From NCBI GenBank assembly GCA_030390025.1, contig JASTWF010000098.1, positions 744,001-808,000 on the forward strand: a DNA stretch of 64,000 bases. Direction: 5' to 3'. The stretch comes from Squalus acanthias (lineage: Eukaryota). A program made the position numbers and the translations under genes. Below are positions 9,758 to 13,203 of the stretch, piece by piece. The notes beneath the pieces were generated by a model. That model ran no database searches. It was not told the origin of the DNA and saw nothing but the letters and a program-made list of their open reading frames with translations. Each line of letters starts with the position of its first letter. Position 1 is the stretch's first letter.

Positions 9758-10112
9758 TCGGGAACGGTAGCCTAGTGGTTATGTTACTGGGCTAGTAATC
9801 CAGAGGCCTGGACTAATGATCCGGAGACAGGAGTTCAAATCCCACCACAGCAGCTGGGGAATTTAAATTCAGTTAATTAATTAAATCTGCAAGAAAAAAA
9901 GCAGCTAGTATCAAACTATCGGATTGTCGTGGAAACCCATCTGGTTCACTAATGTCCTTTAGGGAAGGAAATCTGCCGTCCTTACCCGGTCTGGCCTATA
10001 TGTGACTCCAGACTCACATCAATGTGGTTGACTCTTAACTGCCCTCTGAAATGGCCGAGCAAACCACTCAGTAGCAAAAAAACACGATGAAAAACAATAA
10101 TAATAAAACCGG

Positions 10113-13100
10113 ATGGACCACTCGGCACCGGCTACAGACACAACAATGGCACTCCCAGCCCAGTCGACTCTGCAAAGTCCTCCTCACCAACATCTGGAAA
10201 CTTGTGCCAAAATTGGGAGAGCTGTCCTACAGCCTGACATAGTCATAGTCACAGAATCATACCTATCAGCCAATGTTCCAAACTCCTCCATCACCAGGAG
10301 TGGCGGCACAGTGGTATACAGTCGGGAAGGAGTGGCCCTGGGAGTCCTCAACATTGACTCCGGACCTCATGAAGTCTCATGGCTTCAGGTCAAGCATGGG
10401 CAAGGAAACCTCCTGCTGATTACCACCTACTGCCCTCCCTCAGCTGATGAATTAGTACTTCTCCATGTAGAACACCACTTGGAAGAAGCACTGAGAGTAG
10501 CAAGATCACAGAATGTACTCTGGGTGGAGGACGTCAATGTCTATCACCAAGAGTGGCTCGGTAGCACCACTACTGACCGAGTCCTGAAGGACATAACTGC
10601 CAGTCTGGGCCTGCGACAGGTGGTGAGAGAATCAACACGAGGGAAAAACCTACTTGACCTTGTCCTCACCAATCTACCTGTCACAGATGCATCTGTCCAT
10701 GACAGTATTGGTAGCAGTTACCACTGCACAGTCATTGTGGAGACGAAGTCCCGTCTTCACACTGAGGACACCCTCCATCGTGTTGTGTGGCACTGCCACC
10801 GTGCTAAATGGGATAGATTCAGAACAGATCTAGCAGCTCAAAACTGGGCATCTATGAGGTGCTGTGGGCCATCAGCAGCAGCAGAATTGTATTCCACCAC
10901 AATCTGTAACCTCATGACCCGGCATATCCCTCACTCTACCATTACCATCAAGCCAGGGGACCAACCCTGGTTCAATAAGGAGTGTGGAAGAGCATGCCAG
11001 GAGCAGGACCAGGCATACCTAAAAATGAGGTGCCAACCTGGGGAAGCTGCAACACAGGACTACATGCATGCTAAAAAGCAGAAGCAACATGCTATAGACA
11101 GGGCTAGGCGATCCCACAATCAACGGATCAGTTCAAAGCACTGCCACATCCATCCGTGAATGGTGATGGACCATTAAACAACTAACGGGAGGAGGAGGCT
11201 CCATGAATATCCGCATCCTCAATGATGGTGGAGCCCAGCACGTGAGTGCAAAAGACCAAGCTGAAGCGTTTGCAACCATCTTCAGCCAGAAGTGCCAAGT
11301 GGATGATCCATATCGGCCTCCTCCTGAGGTCCCCACCATCACAGAAGCCAGTCTTCAGCCAATTCGATTCATTCCACTAACAACTTGTATTTATATAGCA
11401 CCTTTAATGTAGTAAAACATCCCAAGGCGCTGCACAGGAGTATTTTAAGACAAAAAATTTGACACCGATCCACATAAGGATAAATTAGGACAGGTGACCA
11501 AAAGCTTGGTCAAAGAGGTAGGTTTTTAGGAGCGAGGTGGAAAGGTTTAGGCAGGGAATTCCAGAGCTTAGGGCCTAGGCAACAGAAGGCACGTACCAAA
11601 GGTTGAGCGATTATAATCAGGGATCCTCTGTGGATACAGCAAAGGCTATGGGCCCCGACAACATCCCGGCTGTCGTGCTGAAAACTTGTGCTCCAGAACT
11701 AGCTGCGCCTCGAGCCAAGCTGTTCCAGTACAGCTATAACACTGGCATCTATCCGACAATGTGGAAAACTGCTCAGGTATGTCCTGTCCACAAAAAGCAG
11801 GACAAATCCAATCCAGCCAATTACCGCCCATCAGTCTACTCTCAATCATCAGCAAAGTGATGGAAGGTGTCGTCGACAGTGCGATCAAGCAGCACTTACT
11901 TACCAATAACCTGCTCACTGATGCCCAGTTTGGGTTCCGCCAAGACCACTCGGCTCCTGACCTCATTGCAGCCTTGGTCCAAACATGGACAAAACAGCTG
12001 AATTCCAGAGGCGAGGTGAGAGTGACTGCCCTTGACATCAGGCAGCAGTTGACAGAGTGTGGCATCAAGGAGCCCTAGTAAACTGAAGTCAATGGGAATC
12101 GGGGGGGGTGGGGGGGGGGGGGAACTCTCCACTGGCTGGAGTCATACCTAGTACAAAGGAAGCTGGTTGTGGTGGTTGGATGTCAATCATCACAGCCCCA
12201 CAACATCGCTGCAGGAGTTCCTCGGGGCAGTGTCCTAGGCCCAACCATCTTCAACTGCTTCATCAATGACCTTCCCTCCATCATAAGGTCAGAAGTGGGG
12301 ACGTTCGCTGATGACTGCAGTGTTCAGTGCCATTTGCAACTCCTCAGATAATGAAGCAGTCCTTGCCCGCATGCAGAAAAACCTGGACAACATTCAGGCC
12401 TGGGCTGATAAGTGGCAGGTAACATTCGCGCCACACAAGTGCCAGGCAATAACTATCTCCAAAAAGCGAGCGTCAAACCACCTCCCCTTGACATTCAATG
12501 GCATTACCATCGCCGAATCCTCCACCATCAATATCCTGGAGGTCACCATTGACCAGAAACTTAACTAGACCAGCCACATAAATACTGTGGCAACAAGAGC
12601 AGGTCGGAGGCTAGGTATTCTGCGGCGAGTGTCTCGTCTCACCTGACTCCCTAAAGCCTTTCCTCCATCTACAAGGCACAAGTAAGGAATGTGATGGAAT
12701 TCTCTCCATTTGCCTGGATGACTGCAGCTCCAACAACACTCAAGATGCTCGACACCATCCAAGACAAAGCAGCCTGTTTGATTGGCACCCCATCCACCAC
12801 CTTAAACATTCACTCCCTCCACCACCGGCGCACTGTGGCTGCAGTGTGTAACATCTACAAGATGCACTACAGCAACTCGCCAAGGCATCTTCGGCAGCAC
12901 CTCCCAAACCCACGACCTCTACCACCTAGAAGGACAAGGGCAGCCGGCGCATGGGAACACCACCACCTCCAAGTTCCCCTCCAAGTCACACAACATTCTG
13001 AAGTATTTTGCCATTCCTTCATCGTCGCTGGGTCAAAATCCTGGACTTTCCTCCCTCACAGCATTGTGGGAGTACCTTCATCACACGGATTGCAGCGGTT

Positions 13101-13140
13101 CAAGAAGGCGGCTCACCACCACCTTCTGAAGGGCAACTAG
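10113..13140 (+). pseudogene. Disrupted APE endonuclease-reverse transcriptase ORF of the tRNA-headed LINE
   Basis: PDIVIVTESYL, TTYCPPS, TRGKNLLDLVLTN, KAMGPDNIP, NPANYRP/ISLLSIISKVME, QFGFRQ, GVP(R)GSVLGPTIF, FADD, WADKWQVTFAPHKCQ over several frames; frameshifts, a poly-G tract and an L2 insertion. Confidence 0.9.
11379..11624 (-). mobile_element. L2-type 3' end nested inside the LINE ORF
   Basis: Same sequence as 2993-3260 (aacaacttgtatttatatagc...gaattccagagcttagggcc). Confidence 0.85.
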
Positions 13141-13203
13141 GGATGGGCAATAAATACTGGCCTTGATAGCGACGCCCACATCCCATGAACGAATGAAAGA
13201 AAA

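Follow-up and report, generated by a model that had tools for sequence, protein, structure and literature searches.

A retrotransposon that begins like a tRNA gene and continues as a protein-coding LINE raises the question of which polymerase makes its RNA, and whether such an arrangement is an accident of one locus or the structure of a family. In the textbook division, LINEs are transcribed by Pol II and encode proteins, whereas SINEs are transcribed by Pol III and are non-coding. The element considered here lies in a 64-kb stretch of shark DNA (64,000 nucleotides, hereafter the window), inside another repeat. The original prediction listed an A box, a B box, a SINE-like body of about 230 bp and an ORF for an APE endonuclease and reverse transcriptase (RT), and all of these parts are present in the window sequence, the ORF in a broken state (Table 1). 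The element is a worn but full-length copy of Zenon, the single-ORF LINE of the CR1 group, in its elasmobranch form.

The headed element and its copies in the source genome

The A box was assigned by the consensus of the Pol III type 2 promoter. In the window copy the ORF is disrupted by frameshifts and by an unrelated 254-bp repeat at 11378-11631; its stop codon occupies positions 13138-13140 and the A-rich end lies at 13203. The predicted ORF start, about 350 bp from the 5′ end, holds in part: a frame does begin at 10107, but it comes about through deletions private to this copy. The endonuclease motif (CKVLLTNIW in better copies) begins at 10171, that is 413 bp from the element 5′ end. Within the RT region of this copy a G run (12101-12122) is expanded, a shorter run being common to the family. 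Other LINE RT fragments, 26-32% identical to shark Zenon, are found elsewhere in the window (34192-35115, 41246-41563, 61002-61649 and 63158-64000).

Table 1. Features of the element, its host repeat and its short derivatives in the window
Feature	Position	Strand	Basis
Host SINE, left piece	9478..9757	-	Joins right piece in 23 uninterrupted copies
tRNA-like head, element 5′ end	9758..9847	+	Sharp common start, flanks unrelated; Rfam tRNA 17 bits on sister copy
A box	9768..9778	+	Sequence; alignment column counts
Anticodon-arm-like hairpin, AGT loop, tRNA-Thr-like	9787..9803	+	Rfam alignment; sequence
B box	9833..9842	+	Each base kept in 41-45 of 45 copies
Non-coding body, also in SINE-sized derivatives	9848..10073	+	Comparison of copies
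AUG of upstream frame of 2-8 codons	10051..10073	+	Same frame as main ORF; stops close most copies
Open leader before endonuclease	10074..10170	+	36 codons in family; majority AUG absent
Single APE endonuclease and RT ORF	10171..13140	+	PF14529 and PF00078; 937 codons in family; broken here
Later insertion of unrelated repeat	11378..11631	.	Absent from sister copies; recurs elsewhere; ~28 bp of element lost
3′ UTR and short A-rich tail	13141..13203	+	Common end, then 5-11 A-rich bases in full-length copies
Host SINE, right piece	13204..13395	-	Joins left piece in 23 uninterrupted copies
SINE-sized derivative	20178..20635	+	Family head and body, followed by element's last ~115 bp
Older, truncated SINE-sized derivative	62017..62335	+	Sequence comparison

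The repeat that received the element is presumably a SINE of the DeuSINE/SacSINE1 type, the name given to it in the original prediction. That head and LINE split this repeat as one insertion was borne out by 23 uninterrupted copies of the host SINE, drawn from the window and from genome loci (G000), all of which cross the site unbroken. No target-site duplication was found around the window copy. Likewise, short target-site duplications could not be discerned among 17 copies: repeats of at least 7 bp occurred in 2 of the 17, as compared to 12% in mismatched pairs. Two full-length copies (L035 and L067) have flank repeats of ~45 bp or more on both sides, possibly long target-site duplications.

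A search of the 3.7-Gb source genome with the head-ORF junction as the query returned 6915 candidates, and all 40 of the matches scored span the whole query at 83-88%, the self match being 100%. With thousands of candidates the junction is not unique to this locus, and its recurrence upholds the proposal that head and LINE form a single unit and that an entire high-copy family is built this way. An endonuclease query gave 83,600 candidates. The 5′ ends were surveyed in 49 of 150 endonuclease-selected matches, of which 9 were supplied by the search, 20 were taken for their long frames and 20 by rank. Thirteen of these copies start at the first bases of the head, 19 end inside the head or body and 17 end further in; that is, the head or body is reached by 32 of the 49. 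Neither an alternative 5′ end, nor an upstream ORF1, nor any other common 5′ sequence was found among the 49 copies, and the full-length copies with a normal 5′ UTR and ORF1 that the original prediction had considered possible did not turn up among them. Full-length copies start within the same few bases and their flanks are unrelated. Older copies, at 68-77%, are all 5′-truncated, and one copy at 82% carries the body. The head is the only observed 5′ end of elasmobranch Zenon in the source genome.

Short derivatives accompany the full-length elements. Twenty-nine further loci were picked by their head; 22 of them continue into the endonuclease, and in 7 the sequence passes directly to the 3′ end of the element. 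Considering all loci, five head-to-tail joins have one common tail breakpoint, while the others are different. These differing breakpoints show that the SINE-sized derivatives arose more than once, and that at least some of the short forms are deletions of the headed LINE. Two SINE-sized derivatives sit within the 64-kb window itself.

Relation to known Zenon elements and tRNA-headed SINEs

Zenon elements have been described from five elasmobranchs, the coelacanth and the hagfish (Stuart et al. 2026, PMC13343379), all of them, according to that account, without ORF1 and with a poly(A) tail. Both features are matched by the shark element, which has a single APE and RT ORF without ORF1, and of which 17 full-length copies carry a short A-rich tail. 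The absence of ORF1, to which the original prediction drew attention, is therefore true of the element but no surprise, since Zenon elements all lack ORF1 in the published description (PMC13343379).

Whether the structure had already been annotated has a divided answer: the 5′ sequence is contained in a published consensus, but the head goes unrecognised in the main text of that paper. Published Zenon entries (PMC13343379, supplement Table S2) were compared by eye over the first 400 letters of each. The start of SquAca_Zenon-1 (3314 bp; the family of the window element has 3316 core alignment columns) is identical to the commonest letters of columns 2-95 save one, where it has the second commonest. 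Within their first 400 letters, the CarCar, RhiTyp, ScyCan and HypSab Zenon-1 entries (white shark, whale shark, catshark and stingray, respectively) have the same head and body start, and three of these other elasmobranch consensus sequences have the B box GGTTCGAATCC. The A and B boxes are thus kept in all five shark and ray Zenon species listed, whereas the coelacanth and hagfish entries start otherwise. The main text of PMC13343379 contains zero matches for tRNA, promoter or polymerase, and gives no account of the head, the boxes, the missing AUG, the lack of T runs or the SINE-sized derivatives described here. A search of the literature, with Repbase and Dfam outside its scope, found no paper on a tRNA or Pol III head of elasmobranch Zenon, and a passage of a whale shark preprint mentions CR1-Zenon a single time and says nothing of its structure. 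The Zenon family and its missing ORF1 are known already; the head is in print as letters only and is undescribed in the literature searched.

In an RT tree of 42 rows, none of them a named reference, the shark element falls into a 99/99 clade with two single-ORF relatives, L156 and L157, apart from the CR1 of the same genome. A canonical CR1 (HER1-like) is ruled out by the missing ORF1, by an RT identity of 32% to the genome's CR1 and by the separate clade. The genome's CR1 (L136-L155) itself gave 963,790 candidates. Motifs in the 5′ UTR of L156 and L157 recur in the Zenon elements of hagfish and coelacanth. One of these, made up of GGGCGGATGAG, a hairpin and CCAACGGCCATC, is located at 165-225 in L156 and at 375-500 in L157, where it occurs in tandem; it folds as a nested stem, has no Rfam match, and resembles a variant of the hammerhead core. 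The motif is also visible at the start of the published hagfish entry EptBur_Zenon-2, and other short motifs match the 5′ UTR of the coelacanth entry. It was not seen in the 5′ region of the shark element.

The features of a tRNA-derived SINE (SINE2) are shared in part: a head with A and B boxes is present and an internal oligo(T) terminator is absent, with an Rfam score below the cut-off. A short, non-coding SINE2 is ruled out by the 3.3-kb length and the selected ORF; only the short derivatives fit that class. ARAGORN and Rfam gave no tRNA match on the head of the window copy. On a better sister copy the Rfam tRNA model scored 17 bits (E 0.3), short of its gathering score of 29, and aligned the D arm, the anticodon arm (AGT loop) and the T arm with 22 extra bases in the variable loop; judged by this model, the head resembles a tRNA weakly. 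Neither a Meta nor a UCON3 central domain was found after the head by eye against the first part of each printed alignment. No tRNA heads were found in metagenome relatives (ARAGORN on 46 of 80 loci, Rfam on 8, motif scan on 44).

Autonomous LINEs of the Ingi clade with SINE-like heads derived from small RNAs were reportedly described by Kojima et al. in 2011. Ingi-clade elements belong to a different clade from shark Zenon, and a Ceph-SINE-like stretch is on record within the 5′ UTR of Ingi-3_AC. Closer to home, lepidopteran Zenon and its derivative Persaeus (PMC6740152) share with the shark family the single ORF, the poly(A) tail and short derivatives made of the two ends, but Persaeus differs in showing, as presented there, neither homology to a tRNA nor a Pol III promoter. 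The bivalve SINEs mobilised by Zenon (PMC11481361) and bipartite SINEs of the Bov-tA type (PMC5786205) consist of a tRNA head, a body and a LINE 3′ end, like the shark short derivatives. These SINEs are non-coding ('SINEs cannot encode a protein', PMC5786205), whereas in the shark the head sits on a whole coding element.

Coding capacity, selection and linkage of head and RT

The element ORF matched Pfam PF14529 (APE endonuclease) and PF00078 (RT). Codon-wise stop counts over 94 aligned natural stretches revealed a single frame that runs for 937 codons from the beginning of the endonuclease, with the terminal stop in 47 of 49; the other codons of this frame are never stops in more than 19%, while the other two frames have 42 and 46 majority stops. 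Upstream, the main frame stays open for 36 codons up to a TAA (53 of 66), giving a total of ~973 codons. There is no majority AUG in this 36-codon leader and no in-frame AUG at the ORF start. The nearest AUG (57 of 60) sits 8 codons upstream of the TAA and is usually followed by a TAG (38 of 62). Shared deletions in the leader are all in frame (3 of 3), but the ORF itself gives 4 of 8 in frame, which leaves the leader count uninformative.

Changes private to single copies have a dN/dS-like ratio of 0.86-0.90, which is near neutral. For variants present in at least 15% of copies the ratio is 0.18-0.19, also when the 62 head-bearing copies are taken alone (24 silent and 15 replacement variants; ratio 0.19). 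The source elements bearing the head had an ORF under purifying selection. Position 22 of the head and position 2484 of the ORF, 2.4 kb apart, vary together without exception (8/0/0/10, p 2e-5); among 375 head-ORF pairs, 1 passes Bonferroni correction and 6 have p<0.001. The head was inherited together with the RT. From the sequence comparisons, the view that the head-bearing elements would have been autonomous is supported.

In the best-scoring set, copies diverge from the column yardstick by a median of 3.7%. No intact ORF was found among the copies read, the longest natural frames being 778 codons and, with one stop, 929 codons. One short contig (L054, G000:C2878:307-2659) is only 0.3% from the family column yardstick. 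Many short contigs (C2755-C3083) carry near-identical CR1 frames; such contigs could be very young copies or assembly contigs of collapsed repeats. A stretch of ~250 residues of the shark Zenon ORF also occurs in a protein of Heptranchias perlo (P0039) whose annotation is aldo-keto reductase 1B1-like, either as a gene-model artefact or as an exonised Zenon copy.

Transcription of the headed element

The absence of an internal oligo(T) terminator has been used as a criterion for Pol III templates (PMC4494074). Over the 3.3 kb of the element, no TTTT on the coding strand is common to a quarter of the copies, in an alignment where 27 AAAA, 12 CCCC and 13 GGGG windows are common to copies. The older copies likewise have no common TTTT over 1390 windows. 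A near-miss test proved powerless, as it gave 0 of 40 for T windows and likewise 0 of 263 for C windows. In each of the 44 metagenome relatives examined (out of 80) the ORF contains 3-40 T4 runs, and none of the 44 has a tRNA head. However, the genome's CR1 is depleted too, with 3 TTTT as compared to 8.5 in codon shuffles (P 0.004). Shark Zenon is T-poor (20%) and TT-poor, the observed/expected ratio of TT being 0.67-0.79 in 6 sequences versus 0.83-1.14 in 20 controls. When compared with base shuffles, the lack of TTTT is significant (P 0.007-0.057); with controls that preserve dinucleotides or codons it is not (P 0.06-0.58 and, in a second test, P 0.08-0.55). Against such composition controls the test is weak; the lack of TTTT is compatible with Pol III transcription without proving it. 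Contigs of three presumed RNA runs cover the element, such contigs giving neither the start, the level nor the polymerase.

The reading that we favour, at slightly better than an even chance, is that of an autonomous tRNA-headed Zenon whose 3.3-kb RNA would be made by Pol III, with the A and B boxes as internal promoter, and would act at once as messenger and as template. The ordinary Zenon 5′ UTR may have been swapped for a tRNA-headed module by template switching or recombination in an ancestor of sharks and rays. This replacement would be placed before the split of sharks and rays, which is ~250-300 million years old. An ORF1-less Zenon may have been suited to such a swap, because in the L1 system Pol III transcripts need no ORF1 (PMC2666806). 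Pol III would initiate at the first G and read through a body without T runs. Pol III RNA is uncapped, and translation without an in-frame AUG could begin at a near-cognate codon of the leader, or ribosomes could re-initiate once they have passed the very short upstream frame. The endonuclease/RT would then bind the 3′ tail and copy the RNA by target-primed reverse transcription, the established mechanism of LINEs, usually truncating the 5′ end, and internal deletions of the headed LINE would give rise to SINE-sized passengers. The fuller version of this model, an autonomous SINE whose lineage has persisted in sharks and rays since their split, with an uncapped 3.3-kb Pol III RNA, non-AUG translation and SINEs spawned along the way, is put forward tentatively, as somewhat short of an even chance.

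Other explanations differ in where they place the head. A chimera formed once by template switching, or a LINE with a fixed target site in a SINE, would fit the existence of SINE-sized elements that carry this head. Nevertheless, thousands of candidates carry the head-ORF junction, head variants are linked to RT variants, the junction is present in the consensus of five species, and the 3′ flanks of the copies are unrelated and hold no SINE remainder; on these grounds both origins were rejected. Together these two origins are extremely improbable.

A different matter is whether the head, once captured, works as a promoter of the coding RNA. It might be no more than a 5′ UTR, with the coding RNA made by Pol II from a cryptic promoter in the body or by read-through from the host, and the boxes vestigial or of use to the derivatives only. 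Capping would suit translation, LINEs are normally transcribed by Pol II (as stated in PMC5786205), the TT-poor composition accounts for the missing T runs and an AATAAA overlaps the element tail. We nonetheless regard this as unlikely, as the start of full-length copies coincides with the tRNA-like first bases, the two boxes are retained in the published consensus of shark and ray LINEs, and scanning ribosomes would likewise find no in-frame AUG. Alternatively, the work could be divided, Pol III making the template RNA and the protein being supplied in trans, by way of the shared 3′ tail, from Pol II read-through of some of the head-bearing copies themselves. Such a division would fit the head, the lack of T runs and the many non-coding derivatives, and cap-free translation would be unneeded; however, purifying selection on the variants that define lineages is simplest to explain if each source RNA supplied its own protein, and we consider a division of this kind rather improbable.

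The tRNA-headed Zenon is real, family-wide and common to sharks and rays. Repeat annotation in these animals is affected, as head and body would be divided between a SINE entry and a LINE entry. At 3.3 kb, the self-contained element could easily be tested in cell assays. If the favoured reading is true, its RNA would be a natural 3-kb Pol III messenger translated without a cap or an AUG. The headed LINE also offers a direct route to the birth of SINEs, in which the middle is deleted, and a vertebrate LINE lineage that prospered with a tRNA promoter would blur the divide between LINEs and SINEs.
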